Shown here one piece after another: positions 2,313 through 32,423 of a stretch of DNA of 64,000 bases (position 1 is the stretch's first letter; each line of letters opens with the position of its first letter). The notes beneath the pieces were generated by a model. That model made no database searches, was not told the DNA's origin, and saw only the letters and a list, made by a program, of their open reading frames with translations. The position numbers and the translations under genes were made by a program. Source of the stretch: a bacterium (GTDB taxonomy: Bacteria; Omnitrophota; Gorgyraeia; Zapsychrales; Zapsychraceae); NCBI GenBank assembly GCA_030429765.1, contig JAUIER010000005.1, positions 3,175-67,174 of the forward strand. The letters run 5' to 3'.

Positions 2313-2339
2313 AACACAATTGAGGTTGTACAAATAAAT

Positions 2340-2930: not shown

Positions 2931-3057
2931 AACAGTTCTCCGACCTAGTCTTAGTCTAGAGAAGGTTGACAGACAAATCAACTGATCTTATGTACTTTGG
3001 ATGGACAATCGTTTTGTAAGGCGTTGGGAATGAGAGATTTAAAACAGCGACACTTTT

Positions 3058-3789: not shown

Positions 3790-3808
3790 TGAACAAACTC
3801 CTATAGCT

Positions 3809-4864
3809 TTAGTTGTTCTTTGTTGATAGTAATGCATGTAATTCTAAGACCATCTCTTTGGTAAAACGTTGCGCTCCCTTCTGATTGAGATGATGCCAGT
3901 CTTCAAAGTATTCAAAGCCATACGACCTTAGTAATCCTTCATCATATCGCACAAAAGAATTATCTCTTGCAATCTCGGCAATAAACTCTTTATATCGGTC
4001 ATTACTACCATCCGCCTCCCGATTAGCCATAATCTCCTCAAAGATTGGGGCATTAATGATGATCAGGGGCACGCTGTATTGCTTGGCCAAATCACAAGCC
4101 TTCTTGTACCAATACAGGCTTTCGTGGTCTGGATAGATAGGCCAATTGTAATACTTGTGCTCTCGTATCTCCTGCAATGACATCGGCACCGGACGCTCGG
4201 TCAAGTTGCCTCCGTTATAGCGTTGTAGCTGATCCTTCTGAATCGTCACCCGTGGGGTCTGATCTACTCCTCGTCCACGTAAGAAATCACTAATAGCAGC
4301 TCGATATAAAATCAGGGTAGAAATCCGTTCGCATTTGGCGGCAACCAAAGACAACGCTGTTTTAAAAGGAAAATTCTGGACGAGACTTCCTAAGGAATAC
4401 AGTTCAACAAGCATATGCGACGCATTCGAAATTTCAAACGAATTCTCGAGCGTCCACTCCCCCGTAGTGGCGATGGGAGTAATAGCCAAAATAATATACT
4501 TGGGCTTGTGATGATTTTTCAAATACCTATCCAAGAGCAGATAATAGGTGCGAATTCCATGATTGGGAATCGCAAAATTGTAAACGTCAAATTGATGCCC
4601 CGTCTGCTTGGCTATCTCATCGGACAAATACTTGGCGTCCAGCCGTAATATCTGGCTGTCACCCAGAATTATCGCATCATAATCCAGCTTAGAGCGGCTA
4701 TCCAAAAGCTCGCTTTTGTGTTTGACCAAGCCCATAGCCAATGTACGGAATTTGATTTGATTCGCGCGGACTAATCCTTCCATCAGTAAAAGGCCCACGA
4801 TGCAGACCAATAGTGCCTTGGGAACCGGTTTTCCAAATATAGACATTCTCGATGGCAATGGCAT
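3809..4864 (-). CDS. SGNH/GDSL-type hydrolase or O-acyltransferase (DltD/AlgJ/AlgX-like, DUF1574-like) with N-terminal signal/anchor.
   Basis: GDSQ block near the N-terminus and the C-terminal DWHHLNQKG catalytic Asp/His motif typical of SGNH-fold enzymes. Confidence 0.55.
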   Translation of the reverse strand: MPLPSRMSIFGKPVPKALLVCIVGLLLMEGLVRANQIKFRTLAMGLVKHKSELLDSRSKLDYDAIILGDSQILRLDAKYLSDEIAKQTGHQFDVYNFAIPNHGIRTYYLLLDRYLKNHHKPKYIILAITPIATTGEWTLENSFEISNASHMLVELYSLGSLVQNFPFKTALSLVAAKCERISTLILYRAAISDFLRGRGVDQTPRVTIQKDQLQRYNGGNLTERPVPMSLQEIREHKYYNWPIYPDHESLYWYKKACDLAKQYSVPLIIINAPIFEEIMANREADGSNDRYKEFIAEIARDNSFVRYDEGLLRSYGFEYFEDWHHLNQKGAQRFTKEMVLELHALLSTKNN

Positions 4865-5092: not shown

Positions 5093-5671
5093 TTAATATT
5101 CGAATTCTATCATAGGAATTTTTAGTTCCAATTCTTCAAAATCAGGAATGCTTCGTAAAAGATATGTGTTTGAACTGGAAGTAATTATAATATTCTTAGC
5201 TGGTTTCCTTATATTTGTACTGCTAAAAGGCATCCATCCATTGATTTGCTCCTGCTCTCTATGAAGCAAGAAAAGCTGATTCATTTTCTCATACCTCTTA
5301 GTATCAACATGGATACCAAAATTAGGCTTTAATGTTCCACTAATAGTCATAGTATGATGTCCATTTAGTGTTTCATTGATTTTATTGTCTGATCCCTCCA
5401 GACTCGCCAAACTTAATCGCCTCAAAATTATACCGTTGGCCTCTTTGAGACCTCCAATTTCCTTTAGTATATCCGATTGGCCACTACTAAATGCAATTAT
5501 CTGTTTTTCAATATGATCGACCTTACCAACTAAGTTCTTATAGTTTATGTCCAATTCAGTAAACTTGGACACAACATTTCCATACATTATTGTGCATCCA
5601 ACAATACCTCCCATAATAGTAAGTAACAAACTGATAACTACTACAGATGTGTTTATACCATCTAAATTCAT
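5093..5671 (-). CDS. Hypothetical membrane-anchored protein (N-terminal TM helix, AT-rich gene).
   Basis: Long ORF; hydrophobic N-terminus VVVISLLLTIMGGIVGCTIM; no recognisable motif. Confidence 0.4.
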   Translation of the reverse strand: MNLDGINTSVVVISLLLTIMGGIVGCTIMYGNVVSKFTELDINYKNLVGKVDHIEKQIIAFSSGQSDILKEIGGLKEANGIILRRLSLASLEGSDNKINETLNGHHTMTISGTLKPNFGIHVDTKRYEKMNQLFLLHREQEQINGWMPFSSTNIRKPAKNIIITSSSNTYLLRSIPDFEELELKIPMIEFEY

Positions 5672-5858
5672 TGTTTGCCTTTCTGGATTCGCTCAAATAA
5701 GGACACAGTCATCCTTCTGTTAGTTGCAGTTAGATTAGCTTTGCGTACAATATTGGAAACTAGGTTAGTCGATTGCTCATATTTAAGTTGTTTTTCTTCC
5801 CTCCTATTACCATCACGATAAGTCCAGATCGTTTTTAATCGTAATATTCGATCCAATT

Positions 5859-6644
5859 TTATTGATAAAACTGAAATGATGTTAATATACCATTCTCAAA
5901 TCTCAAATATTTTGATTTTCTTGCAGGATCTCCATAAATCCACTGCTCTTGAGCATTATTGGAATATTTTCCTTTTTCAACTTCATCAGCTCGGCCTAAG
6001 CTTCTTGTAACATCTGACCTGGTCATTCCGTATAGAATTTCTCGATTCCTGATCGCTTCTTTAATTTGCTTCTCAAAGCTTCTCTTTTCGCTGTATAAAC
6101 TAGCCTTGTCATCACGTAGAGCAGATATTACAGACTTAATTTTAGTTCGTTGGTCGGAATCTAAATTCTTATCTAGTGCATACTGTAATTGTCTTTCAGC
6201 TTTGTCATAGAATGAAATTGCCTTCTTATATTTAGCAACCGACTTCACTCCTCCAGACAATATGATTTCTGCATCTGTAGTATATTGAAAAGCTTGTTTA
6301 ATTTTCTCTTCCCCCATTAGTTCAGAGGATTGTTTTGAAGATGCTACTTGCCGCATAGGAACTTCAGCTTTTTTTACCTTTACACCTAAACGCTTGATAA
6401 ATTTGCCACTACCCTTGGAGTCAAATTCTACATAATCGGCCCCAATTTCCGTTACGGTAAGCTCGCCTACTCGATCACCCACCCTAACTAGCTCATCATT
6501 AACAACAGCAACATATTCAGTTCCGCTCATAATTCCACTTATATTCAAACTTTCTGCCCAGCAGGCTGATGGAAAGTATCCGACAAAAGCTACTACTAAT
6601 AATATTACTATTTTTTTCACGATTATAGTACGATTAGCCTTCAA
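5859..6644 (-). CDS. Secreted/lipoprotein with C-terminal BamE-like (SmpA/OmlA) domain.
   Basis: Signal peptide; C-terminal GMTRSDVTRSLGRADEVEK...EQWIYG...LRFENGILTSFQ resembles the SmpA/OmlA fold consensus. Confidence 0.45.
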   Translation of the reverse strand: MKANRTIIVKKIVILLVVAFVGYFPSACWAESLNISGIMSGTEYVAVVNDELVRVGDRVGELTVTEIGADYVEFDSKGSGKFIKRLGVKVKKAEVPMRQVASSKQSSELMGEEKIKQAFQYTTDAEIILSGGVKSVAKYKKAISFYDKAERQLQYALDKNLDSDQRTKIKSVISALRDDKASLYSEKRSFEKQIKEAIRNREILYGMTRSDVTRSLGRADEVEKGKYSNNAQEQWIYGDPARKSKYLRFENGILTSFQFYQ

Positions 6645-6858
6645 CCGCTGCAGTGATCGGAAAAAGGCCTGTCCGGAAGGACGAAAACGATCGAATGCCT
6701 TTCTCGATCGTTTCTTAATATTGATTATCCTGTTTCTGAAAAAGAAAATGAACAGCGGATTGATACTCTCGAAATTTATTTTTCGGAAACAGATGCGTTA
6801 ACTACTGCGCTGTCCCTTTTCAGGGACTGTCTCGTTCTCCCTTCTCGTCCCTATTTAT

Positions 6859-7386
6859 TCATTTATTGTAACTGTCTATACCTAATGCGTTAATATAATG
6901 AACTATTTCATGCCATTGAGCTAGGTTGCAATCACAGTATATTGGTCCGTCCGAAAAGGCCAAGTTTATTATTCGTTTGTATTTAAAAAATTCTATTGTA
7001 TAGTCTTTATCTAATGTAATACTGTCTTTAATAGTTTGAAAATCAACTTCCTTAGACTTTCCGTCAAACTTATTTTTACACACAATTTTTACCCTAGTGA
7101 CTCCATCATTCGATCTATCGAGTTCCGCTTTAGTTTTTACACCTAAATCTTTAACGTATTGAGTTATTTCAAGCCATTCCTCAAAAGTACAATTACAATA
7201 CATTTCTCCATGTGGAATATTTAGGTTTATTATTTTTTCATTCTCATATAACTCTATAGCATAGTTACCCTCAATATATATATTTTTCTTAATGGTATCA
7301 AAGTCAACCTCATTAGAAATTCCATCAAAATTTTTTTTATACACAACTACTAGCACTTTACCTCCCCATACAAACGAAATTATCAA
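6859..7386 (-). CDS. Putative immunity protein of the upstream RHS toxin. It is an internal tandem duplication of ~85-aa modules, each with a conserved C-x-C (CNC/CDC) and W-x-E-I motif.
   Basis: Position 31 bp downstream of the RHS gene on the same strand; two homologous halves (KKNFDGISNEVDFDTIKKNIYIEG...MYCNCTFEEWLEITQYVKDLG versus KNKFDGKSKEVDFQTIKDSITLDK...IYCDCNLAQWHEIVHYINALG). Confidence 0.5.
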   Translation of the reverse strand: MIISFVWGGKVLVVVYKKNFDGISNEVDFDTIKKNIYIEGNYAIELYENEKIINLNIPHGEMYCNCTFEEWLEITQYVKDLGVKTKAELDRSNDGVTRVKIVCKNKFDGKSKEVDFQTIKDSITLDKDYTIEFFKYKRIINLAFSDGPIYCDCNLAQWHEIVHYINALGIDSYNK

Positions 7387-7417
7387 TCAGTTGTCGTAGC
7401 CCGGCAGAAATTGCTAA

Positions 7418-10400
7418 TTATTCTGGAAAAAACGGCCCATCATACCATTCCACTCCCCATCCGGGTGTGTAATGCTCCCACTGTGGCTGTGGCTTAGGAT
7501 GTCTGGGACCAGCCGGAAAGGGAAATTTGGGCTTATATGGCCTCACTCCTGTCCCAGGATTACTGGTTGGTAAATTTAATGCAGTTTGTGCTTCTAACCC
7601 CGGCTTATAAGGAGGCTTAACGCTAGGCCCTGTAAAATATTTAGTCTTGTACCATGGTTGTTCTGCTGGATAGTATTGCCAATATTTTGGCTTTTTCGAA
7701 TCCTGTATCAAGTAAGTAACTCCAGCAACTAATAGTAAAAGAAGAGCAATAGGCAATATTCCACAGCTAGATATAGCTGACCCTGTTCCTGCTGCTCCTG
7801 CTACTGCTGCCGTTTCTGCTACTTGCAAACCTAATGGATCCGTAAAATTAATTGGATTGGATAACACATATTCAAACAAATTCATCGAATCATAGTAGCC
7901 CAACGGATCCCTTTGCAAAAATCGACCTATGTCTGGATCATATGCTCTGGCGCGGTAGTGGTAAATACCGATTTCTGTGTCAAATCGACGTCCAGTAAAA
8001 TAATACGGATTACCTATTGATGACAGCGATGTAGTGATCTTTCCATATGGATCATAATCATAAGTTTCCAGAACTGTCCCCGATGAGTTTGAAATATTAC
8101 GAATACTATTTAAACCGTCAAAATGATAATAGTAGGTTGTGGAACTACGATCCATAGTAAGGACTTCGTCGATCCCTCGCCCCATGACGTAATCTGCTTG
8201 CAGAACATTCGAAGAACTATATTCCTCTATTACTTCCGATCCATCGTAAACAAAATAAGTCGTCGTACCATCAACTGTCTTACTGACTCGCCGATTAAAC
8301 GCATCATATTCGTATGTTGCGGTATGCGATGAGTTTTGCATTTGGATAAGCCTGTTCTGCTCATCATACGTATACGTGTTGGTTCCATCTGATTGAAGGT
8401 TATCATTGGAGTCATACGTGTATGTCTGTGTGCCGACTTGATCGTATTGATTTAGGTTATTTGACGTATAGCTAGCACTATCGGCTGTTGTACGATTACC
8501 CACATTATCATACGCGTAACTATGCGTCTGAGCACCTGTCACACCCGTCAACTCATAAATATCGTTATAAGCATAGGTCTGCGTTGCACCGCCTGTTGTC
8601 ATGGTTAGTCGATTGCTCACGTTATCGTATGTGTAATCGAACGTTGAAACGTTCGTTGACGGCAACACATCATTCTTGAGCTGAAGCAACTGATTGGCGA
8701 TGTCATAATCATAATCTGCCACAGGCAAATTGGTATTGATAAACGACTTCTTCGTTCGTCGATTCAGCGGATCGTAGGTGTAATCGAGCAATCCCGCCGT
8801 ATTAACGTCGATATCCGTCATCCGATTCAGATCATCATACGCGTAATCAACAACCTTACCCGACGGATACGTCAACTTGGTTCGATTGCCGTAGTCATCG
8901 TAATTGAAAGTTAGCGTGTAGTTGTTTGAGTTTAGGGTTTGGGTGGTGGTGGCCACACGGTTTAAGGCATCATATGTGTAACCCACACTACTGGCTGTCG
9001 TATCTGCATCCGTCAACCGCGACCCCACATCATACGTGTATGTAACATCCAGATTGCTATCCGTCGTGTACGTTTTGTCAGTCCGGCGGTTAAGGACGTC
9101 GTAAACATAATCAATCGCGTTCCCGCTTGGCGTCGTATGCTTGGTCAGGTTAGAATTCTTGTCGTACTGATACGTACTTCCACTGGAATCCGCGTAAGTC
9201 TTACTGGTGCGCCGATCAAACCCGTCATACGCGTAATCGGTGGCATTACTTTCCGCATCCGTAATCTTGACCAAATTACCGTTCTTATCGTAATCATATT
9301 GCGTCACACCCTGCGGCGTATTGGCATCTTTATGTTCAAATAACAAGTCCCGTTCATCATAAACATATGTCGTCACATTGGTCTCGGCATCCGTCACCGT
9401 CGCTACATTCTCGCTAAGATCATAGGTATACGTCATTGTCCGGTTCAGCGGGTCCTTCATGGTCAGCACATTATTGAGAATGTCATACGTGTACTCGATG
9501 GTCTGCCACACCGTCACCGGATCATCGGCCTGACGTTCGAGCTTCGTCACATTCCCGTTCTGATCATAGGTGTATTTGGTCTCATAACCCAGATCATTAG
9601 TAGTCTTGATCAACCAGCCTAACTCATTGTAGTCCAGGTCAGTCACATTGGTATTGGCATCAGTGATCGTATCCACATTCCCATACGTATCGTATGTTAA
9701 AGACGTAATCGCGTTAATCCCGGATGGATCGCGGATAACATCCTTAAGATAACCGGTTGTTGCATGGTAGGCAAACTGAGTGATATTCCCGTTGGGATTC
9801 TGTGTTTCCGTGATCTGTCCATAGGCATTATACGTAAAATGGGTCGTCGGCGTCTGACTGTTCACCGTTGGCTGCTCGAGCTTAACCACATTCCCGGCTG
9901 CACCATATTTGGGATCGCTCGTCGGCAGGTCATAATCAAACGTATAGGTGTAGGTATTCCCCTTAGGATCGGTAATCGTACGAACCTGATTGAAATTAGA
10001 CTCATAGATAAAATCCGTCACAATATCATTGGTATTGTTATCAGCCAGCGCCATATCCGCTTTTTGACGGACTTGCAGGACATTGCCGCGGGCACGGCGA
10101 TCGGTATTTGTGATGTCATACACATACTTGACCCCATTTCCTTCCGGATACGTAACCGTCTCCAGCTGACGCTCTGAATTGTAGGTATAACTAGTAATAT
10201 AAGAGGCCGGATCTCCCGTACGAATCCCTTGTGTGAAGACTTCTTTGGATAACAGAGCTGCGTTTCCATCAAAATTGTAGGTCGTGACCATACCGCGCCG
10301 ATCCGTCACCGTTGTGGTATTGACGCCATAGGAAAACAAGTAATATCCAGAACCCAAATCCTGCCGCTCGACACGTCCTTCGGAGTCATACGTATTTGTC

Positions 10401-11509
10401 AGAAACACCTGACTCTTGGCATCGGTAATTGTCAGCATGTTATGACTGGTATCATAGGTAAAACTCTTGGTTAATCCCGCCGGATACTGAGCTGACGTTG
10501 GTTTGGTGATACTTAGTAGATGCGCGGAATTGGCATCGTAGGTGAAGGTGATCGTTCGTCCGGCATAGTCCACTATCGAACTTAGTTTTCCATCCGAATT
10601 ATAATTGAGATCAATTTCCCGTCCGACCGTATCAATAATCTTAGTTAGCTGGTAGTCATACCCGACAACAACAGGCGTTAAAGACTTACTAAAATCTGAA
10701 TGCGCGTGAATAGGAATAGCACCACTCGGATTATATTGGAAGGTTATCTGATTTCCGTGGCGGTCCACTATCGCCGTTAATTTACCATCAATATCAAATT
10801 CATATTTGGTTCCATTGGGTCGGGTCATGCTCCACGATCCATCGACATTTTGTACCAATGTTCTGAATACCCCAGCTGGAGCTTCATAAACTCCGGCATT
10901 ATAGGTAAATTCATCCTGCCGGCCATTCTCTGAAATTACAATTGCGTTACCATTACTCATCGGACGGACACGGTAGTAATAACTCATCGTCCACCCATAG
11001 CCAAACTGACCGTTGTAATTTTTGCCGCTACGGTATAAGTGATTAATAGCGACATTGAGGCCTCGCCCGGGAATATATAGGTCTGTGCAATAATAGTAGA
11101 ACTCACCACTGTGCAGGTATACTGGGTCAGCACCCGTTTCAGAACCTTCTCCTGGCTTTGGTGTGTTCTCGGAAGGATTCCGCGCTTCAAAACAACCTCC
11201 GCCAAGTGTAGGCATACCATTTGGATTTTGCTTTGGTTGTGGTTTCTGTGAAGAGTCTTCTGTCTCCGGGACCGGCTGCTTATCGCCATTGGGAAGTGCA
11301 CCTCCACCATCGCCACCCGGTGGCTGGCCTTGTTGCGCTTGATCATTTACCGGGGCAGGCGCTGGAAGCGAATCTCCAAAATCTACACCACCAACCCCAT
11401 CCCAAGGATTGACATGAAGAGCCATGGCCGAATATGGAACAATACAGCTCCAGGCAAACGTTAGCAATGTGATAAAGGCAATCGACTGAAGTTTTTTGAA
11501 TATTTTCAT
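7418..11509 (-). CDS. RHS/YD-repeat polymorphic toxin with Sec signal peptide, RHS-associated core ending in DPLGL, and a ~135-aa C-terminal tip of unknown type (hydrophobic helix plus Pro/Tyr/Lys-rich tail).
   Basis: Numerous YD repeats (YTYDxxNRxT, FxYDxxGN), RHS core motif GRRFDTEIGIYHYRARAYDPDIGRFLQRDPLGYYDSMNLFEYVLSNPINFTDPLGL, then ILPIALLLLLVAGVTYLI and a PKYWQYYPAEQPWYK...PKPQPQWEHY tail. Confidence 0.9.
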   Translation of the reverse strand: MKIFKKLQSIAFITLLTFAWSCIVPYSAMALHVNPWDGVGGVDFGDSLPAPAPVNDQAQQGQPPGGDGGGALPNGDKQPVPETEDSSQKPQPKQNPNGMPTLGGGCFEARNPSENTPKPGEGSETGADPVYLHSGEFYYYCTDLYIPGRGLNVAINHLYRSGKNYNGQFGYGWTMSYYYRVRPMSNGNAIVISENGRQDEFTYNAGVYEAPAGVFRTLVQNVDGSWSMTRPNGTKYEFDIDGKLTAIVDRHGNQITFQYNPSGAIPIHAHSDFSKSLTPVVVGYDYQLTKIIDTVGREIDLNYNSDGKLSSIVDYAGRTITFTYDANSAHLLSITKPTSAQYPAGLTKSFTYDTSHNMLTITDAKSQVFLTNTYDSEGRVERQDLGSGYYLFSYGVNTTTVTDRRGMVTTYNFDGNAALLSKEVFTQGIRTGDPASYITSYTYNSERQLETVTYPEGNGVKYVYDITNTDRRARGNVLQVRQKADMALADNNTNDIVTDFIYESNFNQVRTITDPKGNTYTYTFDYDLPTSDPKYGAAGNVVKLEQPTVNSQTPTTHFTYNAYGQITETQNPNGNITQFAYHATTGYLKDVIRDPSGINAITSLTYDTYGNVDTITDANTNVTDLDYNELGWLIKTTNDLGYETKYTYDQNGNVTKLERQADDPVTVWQTIEYTYDILNNVLTMKDPLNRTMTYTYDLSENVATVTDAETNVTTYVYDERDLLFEHKDANTPQGVTQYDYDKNGNLVKITDAESNATDYAYDGFDRRTSKTYADSSGSTYQYDKNSNLTKHTTPSGNAIDYVYDVLNRRTDKTYTTDSNLDVTYTYDVGSRLTDADTTASSVGYTYDALNRVATTTQTLNSNNYTLTFNYDDYGNRTKLTYPSGKVVDYAYDDLNRMTDIDVNTAGLLDYTYDPLNRRTKKSFINTNLPVADYDYDIANQLLQLKNDVLPSTNVSTFDYTYDNVSNRLTMTTGGATQTYAYNDIYELTGVTGAQTHSYAYDNVGNRTTADSASYTSNNLNQYDQVGTQTYTYDSNDNLQSDGTNTYTYDEQNRLIQMQNSSHTATYEYDAFNRRVSKTVDGTTTYFVYDGSEVIEEYSSSNVLQADYVMGRGIDEVLTMDRSSTTYYYHFDGLNSIRNISNSSGTVLETYDYDPYGKITTSLSSIGNPYYFTGRRFDTEIGIYHYRARAYDPDIGRFLQRDPLGYYDSMNLFEYVLSNPINFTDPLGLQVAETAAVAGAAGTGSAISSCGILPIALLLLLVAGVTYLIQDSKKPKYWQYYPAEQPWYKTKYFTGPSVKPPYKPGLEAQTALNLPTSNPGTGVRPYKPKFPFPAGPRHPKPQPQWEHYTPGWGVEWYDGPFFPE

Positions 11510-11541
11510 GATAGCTCTTGGTTATCCATGGTGAATGATTT

Positions 11542-12249
11542 TCATTTTACGAAAAAAGGAATACTAACCGTTCCGATTTCGCCCTCATATCCAACGACAT
11601 TCACTGTCAGTGTATGCCGTCCTTTCGATAATCCTTTGGCGTTAAGTTCGTAGTTAAATGGATTGACTCCCTGCTCATCTTCCATCAAAAATGTATTGTC
11701 GAGGTACATACCAATCTCAAACTGGCTTTCGTTAAGCCATTTGATATCCCGAGCATCAATCATGATCCTCACAGGTACATCCGTATTTCCGCTAATTTGA
11801 GCCATGCCGTTGTCCATGTCGGCGTCCGGAAATTCAACTTCAAAGCGGGGAACTTTACGATACCCCCGGATGGGTGAATCGTAACTCTGTCGCTTATTCT
11901 CATCCGTAGGTAGACAGGCAATGATCAACATATAATCCGGTCGTTTCCCAAAACTCACAAGTCCGCTTGAATCTGTGAAGTCCCACTGTTCGGTATGTGA
12001 CCCTGCCTTTCGAGGCTCCCAATCCAGCAGATTTCGAAGCAGTGGACCTCCTTTGGCTATGCCGATTCGAAGCCGTACAAGCGCGTCTTCCGGCAGGCTA
12101 TACTTTATTTCCCCTGTTTGCGAATCGAAAGAGACATCCGTTGGCACAATTTCAGGATACTGATACCCGCTTTCTGCTGGATATGCTGTTGATCCGCAGA
12201 CGCCAAGAAAGAGACAAAGGAAAAAACTAGAAAGAACGCTGAGTTTCAT
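11542..12249 (-). CDS. Secreted hypothetical protein (signal peptide; beta-rich, Ig-like C-terminal region).
   Basis: ORF with N-terminal signal MKLSVLSSFFLCLFLGVCGSTAYPAES; tightly packed in the operon. Confidence 0.45.
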   Translation of the reverse strand: MKLSVLSSFFLCLFLGVCGSTAYPAESGYQYPEIVPTDVSFDSQTGEIKYSLPEDALVRLRIGIAKGGPLLRNLLDWEPRKAGSHTEQWDFTDSSGLVSFGKRPDYMLIIACLPTDENKRQSYDSPIRGYRKVPRFEVEFPDADMDNGMAQISGNTDVPVRIMIDARDIKWLNESQFEIGMYLDNTFLMEDEQGVNPFNYELNAKGLSKGRHTLTVNVVGYEGEIGTVSIPFFVK

Positions 12250-12258
12250 ATAGTTGCT

Positions 12259-12774
12259 TTAATCAATGACTTCGATCGATTGAATCTGTGAAGCCAAGAC
12301 CTGATTATTTTGGTCGATAACTTCAATCCTGACTTCATACGTACCTGGTTGCTGTCCTTTAAAATTTTGTTTAAATGCAAAAGGAAGAAATGACTCTTTA
12401 TAGCGTTCAATCTGACGACCGTTCAAATAATACGCGATATCATATGGCCCCTCGGTCACATTGGTGCCAGCTATTAGATCAATCCTGAATTCGTGGATAT
12501 TCTTAACTTGAGTCCCTTTGTTGTCCCTGCCAAACTTTCGTTTGCTGAAGACCACATCTGCTTGACGCATTTTCGTTCGTCGTACGTTCTCCAGCACGAC
12601 CTTAGCATTACGAGCTTTCTGTTCTTCGGCCCGCGTAAAGGCTTGAATAGAATTTTCACCCGGCGGCGTGGCGCCTGCCAGAGAAACGCTCACCAAACTA
12701 ATAGCCATGGGTAGGATTAGGCTTGGAATATATCTATTCTTCAGATACGTCATATTATTTTTCTCCTGCTGCAC
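12259..12774 (-). CDS. Secreted hypothetical protein.
   Basis: Signal peptide LILPMAISLVSVSLAGA; overlaps the upstream TolB-like gene by 20 nt, so probably co-transcribed. Confidence 0.45.
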   Translation of the reverse strand: MQQEKNNMTYLKNRYIPSLILPMAISLVSVSLAGATPPGENSIQAFTRAEEQKARNAKVVLENVRRTKMRQADVVFSKRKFGRDNKGTQVKNIHEFRIDLIAGTNVTEGPYDIAYYLNGRQIERYKESFLPFAFKQNFKGQQPGTYEVRIEVIDQNNQVLASQIQSIEVID

Positions 12775-13630
12775 ACCATCTGGGCTCTATCGCCTCTGAC
12801 GTTCCGTCAGTCAGCTGTTTGACATTGGAACCGTCTAAATCCATTAGCCATAGTTGCTGAACGCCTGATCGGGTTGAGGTGAAAACCACTCTTTGACTGT
12901 CCGCCGCTACATCAGGCGTAGTATCCAAATCTTCGTTATTTGTTATCGATTTAACCTTTTTTGATTCGACATTCACTACGTATATCTCGTAATCCTGACC
13001 ATCACGATTGGAGGCAAAGATTATATTCGCACCGTCCGGTGTAAAGCGTGGATGGACGTCCAGTCCGTCGGCCTTCGTGATCTGTACTCGCTCCTTACTT
13101 TCCGGACTGATTGTCCAAATATTGTGTTCCAATTGTCCGTCCGCGCTGACAAACGCGACTTGATCACATGTCGGACTAAAACTTGGGTGATACTTCAAAT
13201 ACTTGTCCTGTGTGACCATCCGGGTCTCATCTCCAGTCATGTCCGAAACCCAAATATCGCTAATGTCAATTTCTCTGGGATTAAACCGTACAAACAATAA
13301 CTTCTGAATACCGTCGCAATAGTCCGGACTATTAATCGAATTGTATCGGCTCAACAACTCTGTTTCTTGACCATTCTCCAGACTGTATTGATATAATTTC
13401 CCGTTATTACTTCGATACACAACTTGCTGAGTTGAATCAATACAGACCGGACTGCGCTTATCGCGCTTACTGGTTGTCAATTGAGTAGGCTCACTCCCAT
13501 CTTCATTAATCATCCAGATCTGCCAGTAACCATCCGTCAGCCGGGAGTATACGACCTGTTCCTGAGCCGAGGCTGTCACGGGGCTGGACAGTAGTCCTAT
13601 CAATACTATGAAAAAGATCGTTCTTGGCAT
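12755..13630 (-). CDS. TolB-like periplasmic beta-propeller (PD40/WD40-like repeats) protein.
   Basis: Signal peptide then repeated DGS/DG...Q.T... blades (INEDGSEPTQLT, FTPDGANIIFASNRDGQDYEIYVVNV, LMDLDGSNVKQLTDG) typical of TolB-type propellers. Confidence 0.6.
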   Translation of the reverse strand: MPRTIFFIVLIGLLSSPVTASAQEQVVYSRLTDGYWQIWMINEDGSEPTQLTTSKRDKRSPVCIDSTQQVVYRSNNGKLYQYSLENGQETELLSRYNSINSPDYCDGIQKLLFVRFNPREIDISDIWVSDMTGDETRMVTQDKYLKYHPSFSPTCDQVAFVSADGQLEHNIWTISPESKERVQITKADGLDVHPRFTPDGANIIFASNRDGQDYEIYVVNVESKKVKSITNNEDLDTTPDVAADSQRVVFTSTRSGVQQLWLMDLDGSNVKQLTDGTSEAIEPRWCAAGEK

Positions 13631-16600
13631 CTACTCAAATACGGTAATGTTTCCGTCAATCACCTGGGTTGTCGAGTCTTTTGTCACGGATAATCTGATT
13701 TTGTAATGCCCTTCGGTATCTACAAACTTACCTAAATCATTCAAGCCATCCCACTCTACCGTATGGCTTCCGATATTAGTGAACACATTATTAACTAAGG
13801 TCGCCACCGTCTGATCCTGGGTATCAACAATGGTTAGGGTAACGTTCCCCGATTCGGATATAGTATATTCAATCTCCGTCGATTGACCGTAGACCGGATA
13901 TATAACATAGGGGTCGGCCTGAATAGTTGATGTAGTTAGGCCTGGATGATTGTCAACAATAATCGCATTGTCGGGCAAAATCTTAGACCATGCCAATACC
14001 GTATGGTCGTCTGCCACAGGCATATCTCCATCATCCGTACGACCGTCCCAAATAACAGTATTACCGGTCGTATCACTCGGAAGATACTCCACGAGGCGTC
14101 GATCCATGTAATGCTCGCCATGCCGGCCTACCCAGAGAATCACCCAGGACGGAACGCTGACGTCATAAGAAACAGTGACCGTTTCACCTTGATATGGATT
14201 GAATGTCGCCGGTGTGACACTCATATTCGAGAAAGTCGCCGTACCGGAGACATATTCGGGATCATAGGTGAAATTCATTGTAGAATCGACTGCGTCAATT
14301 GTATATACATATGCCGAGTCATCCAAATCAGTATTAGTGGAATCTTTTCCATTCCATACAAAGGTATTGGCTCCGGCTGTCCGGGCTGAATTTAGCAACA
14401 GTGTATCTTCATACACCCGGTAATATTTGCCATTCGAGATGTACACATCTCCTTTGTATATTTTGATCGTCACATCCGCGTCCCGATCCAGCGTAAAATT
14501 GATAGTTGATGTCTGTCCACTGCCAGGATCGATGGAAGTGTCTGTGTGCGAAACATTGGTTATCAAATCATTTGGATAAGCCTGCCCCCAAATTCGAGCA
14601 TCAGTAACCATATGATTGAAATAATAGATACTGCTGTCTACGAACAAAGAATTGGAACTGGCCACCGTGCTTGTATAAAATACCATTTCATTTTTGAGAT
14701 ACGTGATCGTCGTTCCAGTGCGCTCAATTTTAATCTTATCACCGGCCTGATACGGACCAAAATCTCCCCTGGAGACACCACTTTCATAAACTTCAAGCGT
14801 TTGGTTGTCTGTGACATATATTCCATAATCGATGGTTTCCCAGCTGTTATTAGTATTGGTGTCCGATAGACCGACAATATAGGCCTTATCGATATTTGTC
14901 ATCTCGAAATCAAGTGCAAAATCTCCGGTAAATATTCCGGTTGATATGGCACCGGCATTTCCCCATCCTGCTCCGATATTCTTTTGTAAGTCATTTCCAT
15001 AAGCAACTCCTCCAACAATATCTCGCCATACGACATCCGAATTAATGTCCGGCTTGGCACTCACGACGTTTGACGCTCCACCGGAGCCAATCGCATTCTT
15101 GGTGACAACTCTAAATTGATAAGACGTACCATTAGATAAACCTGTAATCGTTGCACCGGTCACAGCGTCATCTGCGTATGTTGAGCCAAAAGTCCCACTG
15201 GCCACCGTGCCGTATTCTACATCATACCCCGTAATAACTGAGCCTCCGTTGGAAGGTGCGGACCAATACAAACTAGCACTTGAGTCATCAGCTTGCACAT
15301 ATAGATCATTCACAGCCCCAGGAACGGTCGGGACAACGCCTAAAAATTTAGCATCCTGTATGGTTGCTCCATAGTCATAAAATGCTGTATCTACGAGCAA
15401 AACTCCTGCACTTGGTACAGAACTGCGGTAAAAAACAACACCGTTTTTATGATAGGATATTTCCGAACCATTCCGTACTATCTGAAATTTATCACCCGTC
15501 TGATACGTACTTAAATTACCTCTATCAGTCCCCCCTTCGTAAACATGTACCACACCACCTGGAATCAGGTCTATGGCATAGTCAATTGTAGTATAATTGG
15601 CATCTACATTGACATCTGAAAACCCGCACAAACGATAAGTTGTTGTTTCATTGGCTGTAAATTCTATTCCGAAATCCCCTTCAAAAGATGACGTTGAAGC
15701 CCCGCCAGCAGCACCCCATCCTCCCCCCATAGAGGTCTTAGCCAAATCGTTTCCCGTGGCGCCAACTCCGACAAAATCGGTCCATACAACATCGATTGGC
15801 ACTCGAGGTGTAATTGTAAGAATGTTGGATGCCTGGCCGCTCCCGTTGGCATTCTTGGCTACAATTCTAAACTGATAAGAGGCCCCTGTTGTGAGTCCCG
15901 TGACTGTCGCGCCAGGTACAGCGTCATCCGTATAGGTGGAAGCAAAAGTTCCGCTACTGACTAAACCATACTGAACCTCATACTCCGTTATTGGGGAACC
16001 ATTGCTGGCAGGTGCGGACCAATCCAAGTCGATACTGGTACCTTGGGAAATCCCAATCAAATCAGATACAGCGTCTGGTGCCGACGTCGAAATTCCAAAA
16101 AACTGTGCGTTCGTAATCGTTGATCCGTTCCAGTTCAATGCAGCATCGACAAGCAATGCTCCGGAACTTGGCGTAGCACTTGTGTAGAAAGTGACACCGT
16201 TCTTTTTGTACAGAATACTGGTCCCCATGCGTTCAACCGCAAAAATATCTCCCGATTGATACGTTCCAAAGGCCCCCTTATAGCTCCCGTTTTCATAAAC
16301 CTGAACACCAGCGCTCGAGGTCAAATAAAGAGCATAGTCAATAGACGTATAGTTGGCATTCACGTTGACATCGGACAAACCGCACATTCGGTGCTTATTG
16401 GTTTCAGTTGCCTCAAATTGAACACCGAAATTACCGGTCTGCGTAGAGTCCGAAGCCGCACCTGCAACACCCCATGTACCCCCGACATTCTGGGTGATGG
16501 TGTTGCCTGTTGCTGTAACGCCAACCAAATCCGTCCATACGACATCAACCAGGGCACTTGGCGTGACAAGGACAACATTTGACGCTGGTCCCGTACCAAT

Positions 16601-17404
16601 CGAATTTTTGGCCACAACCCTGAACTGATACTCTGTACCAGTCGTCAAACCTGTAATTGTGGCACCCGGGCTGGCATCGTCCGTATAAGTTGAACCAAAC
16701 GTACCGCTGGTGACAGTCCCGTACTGAACCTCGTACTCAGTTATGGCTGAGCCTCCATCCGACGGTGCCGACCATGACAATATGGCGGTGGTCGTTGTAA
16801 AATCCGATGACAAATCATTGATTGCACCGGGCGCTTGAGCAGGAACACCTGTAAATTTTGCATCGAGAATACTGCGATTGGTGTAGTAAAAACTGGTATC
16901 TGCCAATAAATCGCCAGTGCTAGAGATGGTGCTTGTATAAAATGTAGTTCCGTTTTTCTTATACGTAATCGTTGTCCCTGTTCTTTCTACCTTAAATACA
17001 TCCGAGAGACTAAACGATCCGAAACTTCCTCTCAAAGTGCCACTTTCATACACCTCGACTGTCGCTGAATTAGAGAAATAAATGGCATAATCAATGGTAT
17101 CCCAGTCCGCATCTGCGTTTGTACTGGAGAGACCACACAGAGTGTTATTGTAGGAAAGTGTATTTGTGGAAAATTCTAAACCGAAATCTCCGCTATGTTT
17201 ATCCGTAGAGGCCGCTCCTCCATTGTTCCAACCATTTCCAGCGGTTTTGGTGAGATCATTCCCGCTGGCGGACACACCCACCAGATCCGTCCAGACGACA
17301 TCAACATCTGCCGCATAGACGCAAGGAACCATGATTATTAAAAACATCCAAATTATAGAGATTTTAAGTAAATGGGTGAGAATCGGGAGTTTTTTTCTGC
17401 GCAT
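13631..17404 (-). CDS. Large secreted or cell-surface repeat protein: four tandem ~250-aa units, each an unknown ~170-aa beta domain (VDVVWTDLVGV...) followed by a fibronectin type III domain, then C-terminal Ig-like (FlgD-Ig-like) domains.
   Basis: FN3 consensus (ITEYEVQYG...YTDDA.PGAT.TGLT.G..YQFRVVAKN..G.G.ASN) repeated four times; signal peptide; 1257 aa. Confidence 0.7.
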   Translation of the reverse strand: MRRKKLPILTHLLKISIIWMFLIIMVPCVYAADVDVVWTDLVGVSASGNDLTKTAGNGWNNGGAASTDKHSGDFGLEFSTNTLSYNNTLCGLSSTNADADWDTIDYAIYFSNSATVEVYESGTLRGSFGSFSLSDVFKVERTGTTITYKKNGTTFYTSTISSTGDLLADTSFYYTNRSILDAKFTGVPAQAPGAINDLSSDFTTTTAILSWSAPSDGGSAITEYEVQYGTVTSGTFGSTYTDDASPGATITGLTTGTEYQFRVVAKNSIGTGPASNVVLVTPSALVDVVWTDLVGVTATGNTITQNVGGTWGVAGAASDSTQTGNFGVQFEATETNKHRMCGLSDVNVNANYTSIDYALYLTSSAGVQVYENGSYKGAFGTYQSGDIFAVERMGTSILYKKNGVTFYTSATPSSGALLVDAALNWNGSTITNAQFFGISTSAPDAVSDLIGISQGTSIDLDWSAPASNGSPITEYEVQYGLVSSGTFASTYTDDAVPGATVTGLTTGASYQFRIVAKNANGSGQASNILTITPRVPIDVVWTDFVGVGATGNDLAKTSMGGGWGAAGGASTSSFEGDFGIEFTANETTTYRLCGFSDVNVDANYTTIDYAIDLIPGGVVHVYEGGTDRGNLSTYQTGDKFQIVRNGSEISYHKNGVVFYRSSVPSAGVLLVDTAFYDYGATIQDAKFLGVVPTVPGAVNDLYVQADDSSASLYWSAPSNGGSVITGYDVEYGTVASGTFGSTYADDAVTGATITGLSNGTSYQFRVVTKNAIGSGGASNVVSAKPDINSDVVWRDIVGGVAYGNDLQKNIGAGWGNAGAISTGIFTGDFALDFEMTNIDKAYIVGLSDTNTNNSWETIDYGIYVTDNQTLEVYESGVSRGDFGPYQAGDKIKIERTGTTITYLKNEMVFYTSTVASSNSLFVDSSIYYFNHMVTDARIWGQAYPNDLITNVSHTDTSIDPGSGQTSTINFTLDRDADVTIKIYKGDVYISNGKYYRVYEDTLLLNSARTAGANTFVWNGKDSTNTDLDDSAYVYTIDAVDSTMNFTYDPEYVSGTATFSNMSVTPATFNPYQGETVTVSYDVSVPSWVILWVGRHGEHYMDRRLVEYLPSDTTGNTVIWDGRTDDGDMPVADDHTVLAWSKILPDNAIIVDNHPGLTTSTIQADPYVIYPVYGQSTEIEYTISESGNVTLTIVDTQDQTVATLVNNVFTNIGSHTVEWDGLNDLGKFVDTEGHYKIRLSVTKDSTTQVIDGNITVFE
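14300..17311. repeat. Intragenic tandem repeat, four copies with ~756-bp period, encoding the repeated modules of the surface protein.
   Basis: Protein-level repeats starting near residues 32, 285, 537 and 785 with high similarity imply DNA-level tandem repeats. Coordinates approximate. Confidence 0.6.
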
Positions 17405-17983
17405 ACAAGTTTCCTAAAGAATTCGAAGAGAAGAACTTTGATTGCAAAAAGAAAAAAGTAATTAGCGCAGAAAAAATAGACTGAAATGCCGTATCTTTTT
17501 TATCTTACAAAATTTGTACTCCAAAGTAAAGGCCAAATCAGCGTCAAGACCAACTTTTTTTATAATCGGATTACTTTTGGATAGTTAAATGTCACTTTAG
17601 ATCAGTTTTAATGGATCTATATCCATCAAGATTCTACCAAACCTAAATCGCATGAAAAATGCAGCCCGATCTTGACTCCTGAAGGCTGCATTGTTTCTAG
17701 AGATTGTTATCAAAACGTTATCGCGGGCAATCCAATTAACATCTCCTTAAACAAAATCTTTTACAAAATCAGCATTTGCAAATATTTATGCACTCTAACT
17801 AATCTTCTTATAAATTCGACCTTTAGGTTACATACCTATTGATGCAATTTTATGTTCCCTCAAATCCAAAAAATATTGGTTGTATTTTATCAACGCTCAA
17901 TATAGGATGAAAACCCATAGTAAAAATACAGCCTATTTGCAGAGCACTCTAAAAAGACACTACTTCGAATTAAGGACTATTTC

Positions 17984-19219
17984 ATGCTTAATATTTCTTT
18001 AGAAGATTTTCTAGATTCATTTTACGATCAAGCTACTTACGTTAAAGTATATAAAAAAAACCCCGCCTATGATTACGACGTTAATGGACAAATAATCTAC
18101 TTTAATCGTCTGTATACTCGGGGGCTCATAGAAAGAGTTGAGCATAACTTTAAAAAATTCACCTCACTTTTTAATCCTTATGAGCTATCAATGCTCAAAA
18201 AAACCTACAATGTTGAGAATATTACTGACAAAGAAGTCGATGCGTTTCGCAAATTGGTGATTAAGAAAAAATTTACCGATTTAGATTTATTCAATAGTCA
18301 TGGCCATAATTTCATAGAGAATGATCATGAAGTTATGAACGGGGAAAAAATGAAGTTTCCTCACAAACTTGAGGACTCCCTATTCCCTGATGGAACTCCA
18401 AGAAAAATTTCAACAACAAAAGTTCCCTTTAAATTGGATGGAAAAATTATCGGTGTCATAGGTTTTTCAAAAGATCGCAGTGGATCTTATAATTTATTTA
18501 AAAATTTGGAGTCGGCTTTTTCTGGTGCAATTCTTGTTGTAGATGCTTTAGGTAGAATTGTGTACAGAAGCCCCCACACCCCTTCGTTTTTTGGATACTC
18601 CTCTGACAGATTCAACCAAATCGTACATGTTAAAGAAATCTTTGCAAGAAAGGATGATCGAAAAAAAATTATTAGAACTTTATATTCAGAAAAATCTGGC
18701 GAGAAAACTTTTGATGATGTCAGCCTAAAACGACTAAATGGAGAAATTTTCAAAGCTAAAGTTGCCGCTGGGATCAGAACTCATGAAAGGTCTACACAAT
18801 TATTTCATGCCACAATAATCGACATTCAAGGCGAATTACGCAAAAGTTTAGAACTAGACAATATCAAAGCGCTAGTAAGGCAAGCCACAACAAACATTCA
18901 AAAAGAGGTATCTAAAGCTGTAAACGACGTGCTTCAAGAAAAAATCTTCGAGAACTCTATAAGTAAGATCGTCGTACTAAATTCCCTTGACGATAAGTTT
19001 AAAGAGTTGTTTAATCTCTATGTTCACACCAACCTCAGCACTAAAAATATTGCACCCCTTACCATCAATTGGAGAGTCGAGCAAACAGTCAAGAACAGGC
19101 TGGTGGAATTAGCAAAAATATTAGGCATAGAAAACGATCGCAATGAATTTAGAAAATATGCTCAGAGCGCTGGTATTTATTCCTTATCATTAGGCCCTTC
19201 TTCTCTGAGATTGGACTAA
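17984..19219 (+). CDS. Hypothetical protein (AT-rich island gene; possibly PAS-like sensory fold in the middle).
   Basis: ORF with AAGGA RBS 8 nt upstream; no confident motif. Confidence 0.4.
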   Translation: MLNISLEDFLDSFYDQATYVKVYKKNPAYDYDVNGQIIYFNRLYTRGLIERVEHNFKKFTSLFNPYELSMLKKTYNVENITDKEVDAFRKLVIKKKFTDLDLFNSHGHNFIENDHEVMNGEKMKFPHKLEDSLFPDGTPRKISTTKVPFKLDGKIIGVIGFSKDRSGSYNLFKNLESAFSGAILVVDALGRIVYRSPHTPSFFGYSSDRFNQIVHVKEIFARKDDRKKIIRTLYSEKSGEKTFDDVSLKRLNGEIFKAKVAAGIRTHERSTQLFHATIIDIQGELRKSLELDNIKALVRQATTNIQKEVSKAVNDVLQEKIFENSISKIVVLNSLDDKFKELFNLYVHTNLSTKNIAPLTINWRVEQTVKNRLVELAKILGIENDRNEFRKYAQSAGIYSLSLGPSSLRLD

Positions 19220-19505: not shown

Positions 19506-19582
19506 TTTTTAAATTGACTTAATTGCCGCAGCATTCTAAAATAAGGTATCAAACTTAAAACTACCGCATGGAGGCCTCCAAT

Positions 19583-20311
19583 ATGTCACCTAGCCATCGT
19601 AGCAATGCAACTTTTCACAACCATTTCGAATTTCTGGAGCTTTTTCTTATAAACCAAATGTTGGAATTATTTTCATTCCTGAGTATGCCCTATTTAAGAC
19701 TTAAACCCCTAGTTGACTTTTTTGCAGCTGCGGCAGGATTAATCCTTTTTTCACCCTTTTTGTTAACGGTAATTCTGCTCGTATGGATCACCTCGCGAGG
19801 CCCAGTCCTATATTCTCAAACCCGGGTCGGAAAAAATGGAAAACACTTCATAATTTATAAATTTCGAACAATGCATATCGACGCGGAGAAAGAAAGCGGC
19901 CCCATTTGGGCAAGCAAGAATGATACTCGTGTAACATCAATAGGCAAGTTCCTTCGAAAATCACATATTGATGAACTTCCACAGCTTATCAACGTATTGA
20001 AAGGCGAAATGAGCATCGTTGGTCCAAGACCGGAGCGTCCAATTTTTGTTGAAAAATTCATACAGTCAGTCCCTAACTATAACGAACGCTTATCGGGGAT
20101 GCCTGGAATCCCAGGATTAGCACAAGTACGACATAGTGGTGATGAGTCCATAGAAGATGTTGTTAGAAAATTGTCGTTCGATTTAGACTACCTTAGAAAC
20201 ATTAGATTTTCTAATGATCTTAAAATTTTCTTCCAAACGATTTATGTTGTATTGCGTGGCGTGAAACTAGGAGATCAACCTGTTATAAATATACCAGTTA
20301 CTGCCGATTAA
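19583..20311 (+). CDS. Polyprenyl-phosphate glycosyl-1-phosphate transferase (bacterial sugar transferase, WbaP/EpsB C-terminal domain family), the EPS/glycan priming enzyme.
   Basis: Motifs KRLVDFF.A...L..SP, YSQTRVGKNGKHFIIYKFRTM, DELPQLINVLKGEMSIVGPRPERP; start chosen at ATG 19583 with a GGAGG RBS. Confidence 0.8.
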   Translation: MSPSHRSNATFHNHFEFLELFLINQMLELFSFLSMPYLRLKPLVDFFAAAAGLILFSPFLLTVILLVWITSRGPVLYSQTRVGKNGKHFIIYKFRTMHIDAEKESGPIWASKNDTRVTSIGKFLRKSHIDELPQLINVLKGEMSIVGPRPERPIFVEKFIQSVPNYNERLSGMPGIPGLAQVRHSGDESIEDVVRKLSFDLDYLRNIRFSNDLKIFFQTIYVVLRGVKLGDQPVINIPVTAD

Positions 20312-20377
20312 GTGGACCATCTAGCGATATATCATTTTAAACTCCATGCATGTTAACCTCATTAACAAGGAGAAAAT

Positions 20378-21550
20378 ATGAAAACTTTAATTGAGAAAGC
20401 ATTAACCATTTGCCGCCTGTTTGACTCTTTGATCCAGCATGTACTCATTGGTTTTTTACTAATCCTCATTCTCAACGCGTCTAATGCTTCTGCGTTTCTT
20501 ATAGAAAGAGATTATCAAACTTTAGGAGACAATCTCTTTACTCTTGATACCCAAACCGGCCTTCTATGGCTAGATGTGCCAGTTACCAGTCCCCAAAGTA
20601 AAGATAGCATTCTGGACTTTATTGCCGAAGAAGACTTTTTTTGGGGAATTCGAGACTTAAATTCCTCTGGACAAATAATTAGTGAAGTTGAAATGTTGAT
20701 GCAACATGCTGGTATAGTTAATACTTTTGGTGTACCTACGGCAGCTAACGATGCGGGCGTACTAAAATTGTTAGCATTAATGGGAGAGACTACTGTTGGC
20801 GAGCAATATGGCATATTTCATAATGTTTTAGGACCAACTAATACGTCGTCTTCAAAATTGGTGTATAGTCCAGGAGCCTCCGAAGCGCATGGCATTTTTG
20901 ACAGCCTGGTACATACAAGTGATGGAAGAAATGATCGTGGACAGTATCTCAGACGCATAGCAGATCCAAACTCTTACGAATCTCTTTCTAATGGCAATAA
21001 TTCCAGCTCTCTGCTTGGAGGAACTTCTAGTACAGGAGGTGTAACTGTAACGTTTGATACAAACGACGACGGGGTTTTTCTTGCCGAGTACAACTTGGAA
21101 AATCAATCAGAGTTCCTAAAACATATCTTTGACAATCAGGTGGAGAATCTGAACTTCGCAATTCCAGGTGAGAATATTCAATGGTGGGACCTTGATTATA
21201 AGAGTGATTTCGGACTTGCTGACCCAAATTTTGGAACAGCTCTAGTTCAGTTAAAATATGACGATTCAGAGTTGGGTCAATTATTTAACGAAAGTGATTT
21301 GCAAGTATTTCATTTTAGGCAAGGGGCATGGGAATTGGTGGCAACTACAGTGGATACCGATGCAAATATCGTCTCCTTTTCTACAAATAGTTTTTCTCCA
21401 TTTGCTTTAGGAATGTCCTCTAGTGTAATTCCTGAACCAACTACGATACTGTTGTTTGGAGGAGGTTTGCTTGGGTCAATTTTAAAGCGGAAAATTAGAT
21501 TTTCGGGAGTATCGTCTATTCCCTCTACTACGACCGACTTTAGGATTTGA
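20378..21550 (+). CDS. PEP-CTERM sorting-signal protein (secreted, exosortase-substrate-like), with an extra 15-aa tail after the basic cluster.
   Basis: C-terminus VIPEPTTILLFGGGLLGSILKRKIRF = PEP motif + TM helix + Arg/Lys cluster; N-terminal signal; AAGGAG RBS. Confidence 0.7.
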   Translation: MKTLIEKALTICRLFDSLIQHVLIGFLLILILNASNASAFLIERDYQTLGDNLFTLDTQTGLLWLDVPVTSPQSKDSILDFIAEEDFFWGIRDLNSSGQIISEVEMLMQHAGIVNTFGVPTAANDAGVLKLLALMGETTVGEQYGIFHNVLGPTNTSSSKLVYSPGASEAHGIFDSLVHTSDGRNDRGQYLRRIADPNSYESLSNGNNSSSLLGGTSSTGGVTVTFDTNDDGVFLAEYNLENQSEFLKHIFDNQVENLNFAIPGENIQWWDLDYKSDFGLADPNFGTALVQLKYDDSELGQLFNESDLQVFHFRQGAWELVATTVDTDANIVSFSTNSFSPFALGMSSSVIPEPTTILLFGGGLLGSILKRKIRFSGVSSIPSTTTDFRI

Positions 21551-23143: not shown

Positions 23144-23148
23144 TCTGA

Positions 23149-32347: not shown

Positions 32348-32423
<76 letters not shown>

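Follow-up and report, generated by a model that had tools for sequence, protein, structure and literature searches.

An open question about RHS and teneurin-like toxins is how those with nothing but a Sec signal come to be displayed and delivered, and a gene array from the candidate phylum Omnitrophota bears on it. The array lies in a 64,000-nucleotide stretch (hereafter the window) of contig JAUIER010000005.1, positions 3,175 to 67,174 of the forward strand (assembly GCA_030429765.1, family Zapsychraceae). An earlier note on this DNA had described six co-directional genes linking a modular FN3 surface protein, a TolB-like propeller, two secreted proteins and an RHS toxin-immunity pair, an arrangement that it did not recognise and of which we likewise found no description in the open-access literature. 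Stated most safely, a Sec-exported RHS toxin and a putative immunity gene are joined in one Omnitrophota operon with a set of four exported, dedicated proteins. The occurrence of RHS beside the same four surface-protein genes suggests a dedicated and so far undescribed way of display or delivery, and we put at roughly 0.55 the probability that this is an RHS polymorphic-toxin operon specific to the Omnitrophota lineage, with proteins of its own for surface display and targeting. The cassette offers conserved, concrete and testable partner candidates (a swappable-head adhesin, a propeller and Ig lipoproteins) in a phylum whose members are proposed to be predators or parasites and for which the papers searched describe no toxin systems.

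Operon structure and conservation

The array runs on the minus strand from 17404 to 6859 and, as first described, holds six genes. These are g1 (13631-17404, 1257 amino acids), encoding an exported modular adhesin; g2 (12755-13630, 291 amino acids), an exported stand-alone PD40 propeller; g3 (12259-12774, 171 amino acids, or 164 from an ATG at 12753), an exported Ig-like protein; g4 (11542-12249, 235 amino acids), an exported protein of tandem Ig/FN3-like sandwiches; the RHS gene (7418-11509, 1363 amino acids), whose product carries a signal peptide; and the candidate immunity gene g6 (6859-7386, 175 amino acids from a TTG, with an uncertain start that allows 161-175). Successive gaps are 0, -20 (or +1), +9, +32 and +31 bp. 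The g2 ATG immediately follows the g1 stop codon, and the likelier g3 start is the ATG at 12753, which has GGAG upstream, is also used by an independent gene call and leaves a gap of +1 to g2. Domain scans upheld the original assignments (three fn3 domains and FlgD_ig in g1, PD40 in g2, and RHS_repeat, DUF6531 and Rhs_assc_core in the RHS protein) and matched no family in g3, g4 or g6. Sec-type signal peptides occur on all five products upstream of g6 and on their orthologues, consistent with the proposed Sec-dependent export of the toxin and its partners.

Terminator-like hairpins are missing from every intergenic gap of the array, and the minus-strand terminator-like matches within it lie in the g1 coding sequence only. 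The first convincing hairpin after the array, 12 bp long and ending in UUUU, lies at 6684-6714 (minus strand), some 150 nt beyond g6 (z = -2.35 for the RNA fold of 6645-6870); as operon terminator it is a weak candidate. The likely promoter region for minus-strand transcription is the AT-rich divergent intergenic stretch at 17405-17983 (32 % GC; fraction 0.323), common to g1 and a plus-strand PAS-domain gene (17984-19219); minus-strand sigma-70-like sequences occur there at 17913-17884 and 17658-17631, both being consensus matches only. Promoter-like matches that could mark internal promoters numbered 47, barely more than the 34 +/- 6 of shuffled sequence, and none in the gaps was persuasive, so that internal promoters were rejected. 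Given the tight or overlapping spacing, the lack of separating terminators and a gene order kept in relatives, the six genes very probably behave as one operon in which the RHS toxin and the accessory genes are co-transcribed, in agreement with the single transcription unit suggested at the outset. The PAS-domain regulator was rejected as a conserved partner, being present only in an identical contig.

Linkage of the FN3 protein, the propeller and RHS in relatives had been set beforehand as a test of the proposed association, and it held in 26 distinct cassettes. Their contexts came from exact look-ups, a one-genome-per-species scan and a metagenome scan, which gave 30 loci (numbered with the prefix L below) and 26 after deduplication; cassettes were mapped by tblastn and open reading frame (ORF) calling. 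All eight genome matches were Candidatus Omnitrophota metagenome-assembled genomes (MAGs), some under the default label 'uncultured Planctomycetales', every taxonomically labelled cassette came from an Omnitrophota MAG, and the cassette is lineage-specific as far as sampled. The recurrent order is g1 stalk, g2, (g3), g4 and RHS, with spacing mostly of -4 to +40 bp and many 4-nt overlaps, including overlaps between g4 and RHS. The propeller gene was found in 23/23 informative cassettes, a g1-type gene recognised by its stalk in 16/17, and RHS in 18 of the 20 cassettes with enough downstream sequence. This linkage is kept at 29-49 % g4 identity (30-50 % for the cassette proteins overall), and in L009, where gene order is rearranged, all genes still lie together.

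The most divergent loci form a distant clade (L023-L030) in which g4 is about 30-35 % and RHS about 27-43 % identical, g3 is missing, and g4 measures 360-390 amino acids with an extra stalk-like Ig domain. One MAG carries three paralogous cassettes, whose accessory proteins share 40-47 % identity versus 55-61 % for the RHS cores; accessory proteins that are more diverged than the cores would fit cognate sets rather than a shared housekeeping factor. In L006/L014, g4 is followed by defence-like genes on the other strand: in L006 (10734-18622), the one full cassette that has no RHS gene, what comes after g4 is a four-helix-bundle ORF and large minus-strand genes resembling a methylase/defence island, which may have replaced RHS.

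Two sets of genes near the array deserve mention here. Recurrently, the cassette has as a neighbour the gene of an exported rhodanese plus cytochrome-b5-like protein (3058-3837 in the window, minus strand; 50-60 % identity), found at 4044-4805 in L006, 15365-16099 in L007, 15703-16464 in L008, 8989-9798 in L009, 11268-12044 in L015, 5381-6151 in L025 and 5956-6726 in L029. In L025 and L029 the stop of this gene overlaps the g1 start by 4 nt, and there it may be part of the operon. A secretin (PF00263, E = 6e-47) and a T2SS-C-like protein (type II secretion system; 855-2981, minus strand) are encoded 4-6 kb downstream of the array on the same strand; they are not conserved beside the cassette in other loci and were rejected as parts of the system.

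The g1 adhesin

In the g1 product, a signal peptide is followed by a lectin-like domain of about 155 amino acids paired with FN3 three times over, then by a lone fourth lectin domain and, at the C-terminus, by three Ig domains of the FlgD type (Pfam: fn3 three times, E = 1e-43; FlgD_ig, E = 2e-10). The AlphaFold2 (AF2) model of the ~155-residue domain (predicted local distance difference test score, pLDDT, 78.5) is a jelly roll of the ConA-like lectin/SPRY/CBM66 type, for which Foldseek returned CBM66, galectin and SPRY matches. A profile of the four lectin copies also matches PDB chain 26gp_Q ('Structural protein', 620 amino acids) at E = 1.8e-4. On the minus strand, the four diverged tandem units of the variable head (14573-17302) lie at 16547-17302, 15794-16546, 15038-15793 and 14573-15037, the last being a lectin domain only; the C-terminal stalk (13631-14572, amino acids 945-1257) is made of three FlgD_ig-like sandwiches.

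This stalk of about 310 amino acids is the only conserved part of g1, with 25-44 % identity by tblastn in the loci that include upstream sequence; a word-indexed search with it gave a single match, tblastn on the fetched loci being more informative. Heads of the lectin and FN3 type occur in the window g1, L002 and L007, and in other loci the stalk bears an FN3 array (L006), PPC domains (L004) or a right-handed beta-helix (L008, L010, L013, L025 and L029). In the 'FN3 surface protein' of the earlier note, what is conserved is the Ig stalk and not the FN3/lectin array. By analogy, a constant stalk with swapped heads is the pattern of receptor-binding proteins.

The four intragenic repeats of about 756 bp noted earlier do lie in register, with start-to-start distances of 756, 753 and 756 bp, but the fourth is without FN3, and the full unit of about 252 amino acids is present in three copies. 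The units share 60-65 % DNA identity and 41-56 % protein identity, their longest common exact words measure 11-15 nt, and they appear to be old. Tandem Repeats Finder (TRF) reported no g1 repeat, its period limit of 500 lying below the 753-756 bp spacing. A hotspot of copy-number change and assembly collapse had been expected here, and the data speak against it: at this level of identity no word longer than 15 nt is shared, an independent Logan assembly encodes an identical 1257-residue product, and contigs end not in the FN3 gene but inside the RHS gene (L001, L003-5, L010, L012, L016, L019, L020, L024, L028 and L029). With no long near-identical stretches between units, g1 was rejected as a recombination-prone tandem repeat. 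The size of g1 does differ by species (1837 amino acids in L002, 1218 in L007), and this between-species difference in copy number is evolutionary variation, not instability.

The RHS protein, its tail and g6

As predicted from its sequence, the RHS protein has the features of RHS polymorphic toxins, namely a cocoon, a DPxG core and a variable tail. Amino acids 1-1228 (7826-11509, minus strand) comprise a type-I signal peptide (amino acids 1-30), a W-x-x-G-G motif with a Pro/Gly-rich linker (31-125), DUF6531, the YD shell and the core. The repeats are clear (RHS_repeat PF05593, E = 5e-64; TIGR01643, E = 3e-39; DUF6531, E = 8e-14), solved Rhs cocoons in the PDB match at E = 1e-51, and DUF6531 marks the cocoon start because it aligns to the first residues of the solved Rhs cores. 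The Rhs-associated core (TIGR03696, amino acids 1152-1228) scores 81.8 bits versus a cutoff of 32.5, with an intact bipartite autocleavage motif, DPLG-x20-DPLGL (RDPLGY ... TDPLGL). At the mature N-terminus, W-x-x-G-G-Q is present in 12/12 clade-1 sequences and P-G-G-T-S-P in the distant clade; the motif therefore changes together with the accessory-gene architecture, and it is a candidate docking peptide.

The C-terminal tail, a putative toxin module (7418-7825, minus strand; amino acids 1229-1363), is 135 amino acids long: a hydrophobic helix rich in Gly and Ala comes first, and after it a domain of about 90 amino acids rich in Pro, Trp and Tyr. It has no Pfam match. Exhaustive HMMER searching found the domain in 49 representative proteins, always at the extreme C-terminus, the long carriers being DUF6531 and RHS proteins, and on this distribution the tail is a genuine recurrent, though unnamed, RHS C-terminal family. 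In every orthologous locus the tails diverge right after the cleavage motif, several of them starting with a Gly-rich hydrophobic segment, and each locus has a different small ORF downstream of RHS. Orphan RHS C-terminal fragments follow the main RHS gene in three loci (L011, 6553-9181; L013, 15214-15756; L015, 9988-10407), each with its own small downstream ORFs, and form a classic displaced toxin/immunity array. Hypervariable tails, differing small genes, orphan cassettes and an intact motif are hallmarks of toxin/immunity diversification.

Downstream of the tail, g6 has no signal peptide and a GC content of 29.5 %, versus about 45 % for the rest of the operon. It contains an internal duplication of two units of about 70 amino acids, about 47 % identical, with a Y-C-x-C ... 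W-x-E-I motif. A homology search of 5.8e9 proteins returned only g6 itself and no known immunity family. In the proposed toxin-immunity pair, a small gene occupies the immunity position, and g6 is an ORFan whose putative immunity role is assigned by that position only.

The propeller and the Ig-like proteins

The g2 product combines a signal peptide with a six-blade PD40 beta-propeller (PD40, E = 1e-16), and its nearest PDB entries are TolB propellers. An identification as TolB itself was rejected: TIGR02800 scores 140.9 bits, far below its cutoff at 343.15, with a match confined to model positions 158-335, and 291 amino acids including the signal peptide leave no room for the TolB N-terminal domain. 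As the original label has it, the propeller resembles TolB, but it is not TolB.

In g3, a signal peptide and a linker precede one Ig-like domain, which is homologous to the second domain of g4 (family alignment of 14 orthologues; hhalign probability 94 %, E = 1.3e-7). The AF2 model of g4 (pLDDT 84) has two tandem Ig/FN3-like sandwiches, and Foldseek pairs it with the tandem Ig structures of RbmA and SiiE, which are generic matches for such folds only; a PDB profile search with the g4 family gave nothing significant. The first g4 domain resembles each g1 stalk repeat (BLASTP E = 1e-4 and 3e-4), and Ig-type domains are thus common to the g1 stalk, g3 and g4. The g4 family is very small, with 8 clusters among 5.8e9 proteins, and a lipobox (xxGC) is present in about 19/23 orthologues.

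Proposed mode of action and alternative explanations

We favour a surface display and targeting complex because a constant stalk bears swappable heads, Ig modules are shared, a lipoprotein and a propeller occur together, and the RHS N-terminal motif sits on a linker. Genes or domains of other delivery systems (PAAR, VgrG, TcA and CdiB type) were found neither on the RHS protein nor among the window ORFs scanned, which also speaks for it. Such a complex is the most economical model and a plausible one, in which assembly and localisation are the steps that we infer. According to this model, g1-g4 and RHS would cross the inner membrane through Sec. As a predicted lipoprotein in most orthologues, g4 would be the anchor, at the outer membrane or the cell surface, of a scaffold that also includes g3 and g2; g1 would join this scaffold via the conserved Ig stalk, and its interchangeable head, here with four lectin-like domains, would recognise target-cell glycans. 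The RHS cocoon may be tethered to the scaffold, plausibly in the propeller, through the N-terminal motif on its flexible Pro/Gly linker, while the tail, cut off by the DPxG aspartyl-protease motif, would be carried inside the cocoon. On contact, the tail would be released into the target, where its own hydrophobic helix could aid membrane entry, and g6 would protect the producer.

Several observations weigh against this model. The cassette encodes no outer-membrane translocator that would account for a route to the surface, and the secretin is not a conserved neighbour either. Neither a recognisable toxin fold in the tail nor any homologue of g6 was found, so that the toxin and immunity assignments draw on position and analogy. 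Both the window g4 (LGVC) and that of its closest relative, L007, are without a canonical lipobox. The MAG with three cassettes could be a mixed bin, and RHS is missing in L006/L014 and in the second, partial copy of L025. Finally, all loci come from one phylum and several have the rhodanese neighbour, and part of the linkage conservation could therefore be inherited synteny.

The last two points bear on the idea that g1-g4 form an independent surface/adhesion (or glycan-processing) module which RHS adjoins through inherited synteny or as an Rhs insertion hotspot. Accessory genes without RHS in L006/L014 and in the second L025 copy would be expected from such independence, as would a distribution limited to one phylum with a rhodanese neighbour in common. 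We nevertheless consider it improbable, since RHS belongs to 18/20 informative cassettes down to about 30 % protein identity, shows 4-nt overlaps with g4, stays linked through the L009 rearrangement and in paralogous copies within one MAG, and changes its N-terminal motif with the accessory-gene architecture. Alternatively, g1-g4 could be periplasmic export or maturation factors that fold, stabilise or hand over RHS to general secretion, with no target contact, in a role comparable to that of MafA for MafB or of Eag chaperones for Rhs effectors of type VI secretion (T6SS). All these proteins are Sec-exported and the g4 orthologues are lipoproteins, PD40 propellers such as TolB are periplasmic scaffolds, a secretin is encoded nearby in the window, and tight linkage suits a chaperone equally well. 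A chaperone would hardly need a swappable g1 head on a constant stalk, however, a feature typical of surface proteins that bind receptors, and the secretin is not a conserved neighbour; we regard this explanation as unlikely, though less so than independent modules.

Least probable, by a little, is a non-weapon adhesion or recognition device in which a teneurin-like YD shell would serve these ultra-small bacteria in host attachment and the tail would be a membrane anchor or signal. It would account for a tail made of a hydrophobic helix and a Pro-rich domain with no enzymatic signature, and for an operon dominated by adhesin domains; moreover, Omnitrophota are proposed epibionts or predators (PMC10066038), and bacterial teneurin-like proteins have been discussed as possible communication devices (PMC13018210). 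The intact autocleavage motif, hypervariable tails, differing downstream genes and orphan C-terminal cassettes argue for a toxin instead.

Taken further, the favoured display and targeting complex could be a multi-protein machine, not recognised before, by which diderms deliver Sec-exported RHS toxins on contact, a 'teneurin-like assembly in trans', which we put forward as a tentative possibility only. By analogy with colicins and TolB, the lipoprotein/Ig scaffold and the PD40 propeller might then hold the cocoon by its docking motif, and the adhesin heads might set prey or host specificity; ultra-small Omnitrophota that live as predators or parasites could use this more speculative machine to kill or to attach.

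Other features of the window

Between g6 and a DUF1574 gene lie three low-GC ORFs (5093-6644, minus strand; 33-37 %; 261, 62 and 192 amino acids) that match no family and have no homologue in related loci; two have N-terminal hydrophobic segments, and the 261-residue ORF (5859-6644, minus strand) gave a faint GspC-like match. On the other side of the operon, a bacterial sugar transferase followed by a 390-residue protein with a PEP-CTERM sorting motif (19568-21550, plus strand) points to an exosortase-type surface system beside it. What looks like a small integrated mobile element (21938-25718, minus strand), with a tyrosine integrase and a D5-type primase/helicase, lies some 4.5 kb upstream of the operon. 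Further away, a 1149-residue protein with three AAA modules and then Peptidase_M41 (34367-37816, plus strand) looks like an FtsH-like protease of unusual length. Rfam found only two tRNAs in the window, both outside the array (a tRNA-Met lies at 32347-32423), and PADLOC gave no match.

Comparison with known systems

Papers on Omnitrophota discuss Tad pili and giant adhesins and do not mention the cassette. Among the closest known systems are Sec-dependent RHS polymorphic toxins such as WapA of Bacillus and Streptococcus, which likewise has a signal peptide, a YD/RHS cocoon, a DPxGL core, a polymorphic tail and a small downstream gene (PMC3482391). Unlike WapA-type toxins, the RHS protein described here has four conserved accessory genes, a diderm candidate-phylum host and no cell-wall-binding domain. 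For the Sec-dependent (T2SS/Sec) class of polymorphic toxins, which includes signal-peptide RHS toxins, Table 1 of the 2012 census by Zhang et al. gives no signature neighbourhood genes (PMC3482391).

In cocoon sequence and structure, the closest proteins are the T6SS Rhs effectors (RhsA, RhsP, Tse15 and Rhs1), which have the same DUF6531 start and the cleavage motif. An assignment to this group was rejected, since a cleavable signal peptide and a linker replace the PAAR/prePAAR/clade domain; VgrG, Eag and T6SS genes were absent among the window ORFs scanned. Another Sec-dependent polymorphic toxin, MafB of Neisseria, is reportedly encoded downstream of an accessory lipoprotein gene, mafA, and followed by immunity genes and orphan cassettes. 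It is unrelated in sequence (no DUF1020/MafB-N); the present system has an RHS cocoon and four accessory genes, an adhesin and a propeller gene among them. In the ABC (Tc) toxins, also multi-protein assemblies, an RHS cocoon whose tail is autocleaved likewise comes with a propeller and with Ig-like domains for receptor binding, but these toxins differ in having a TcA-like injection subunit and a propeller fused to the shell. A Tc toxin complex was rejected because a single protein here holds the whole cocoon, with no TcB/TcC split and no TcA; PDB TcB-TcC matches cover the Rhs core only (E about 1e-9).

The g2 protein resembles a part of the Tol-Pal system in that TolB propellers rank first among its PDB and NCBIfam matches, although g2 is encoded with RHS and not with tolQRA-pal. 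The Gly-rich, disordered RHS N-terminus with its conserved Trp recalls the TolB-binding epitopes of colicins, a resemblance that serves as a lead only.

Teneurin-like proteins of bacteria unite many of the same elements: Ig domains, a lipoprotein or Sec signal, a six-blade propeller, a YD shell with an autocleaved tail and an immunity gene (PMC13018210). There, a single chain unites these elements and includes an FN-plug and an NHL propeller, whereas here they are separate genes and the propeller is of the PD40 type. By sequence, the RHS protein is nearer to classical Rhs (E = 1e-51) than to teneurin-like proteins (E = 3e-32), and it was rejected as a member of the latter group since Pfam finds only DUF6531 and RHS_repeat on the 1363-residue protein. 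According to a 2026 study, no delivery machinery is evident for teneurin-like proteins (PMC13018210). If the proteins of the Omnitrophota cassette form a complex, they would represent a new route of delivery for a toxin scaffold that is among the most widespread and, if so, a model of target access by signal-peptide RHS and teneurin-like proteins.

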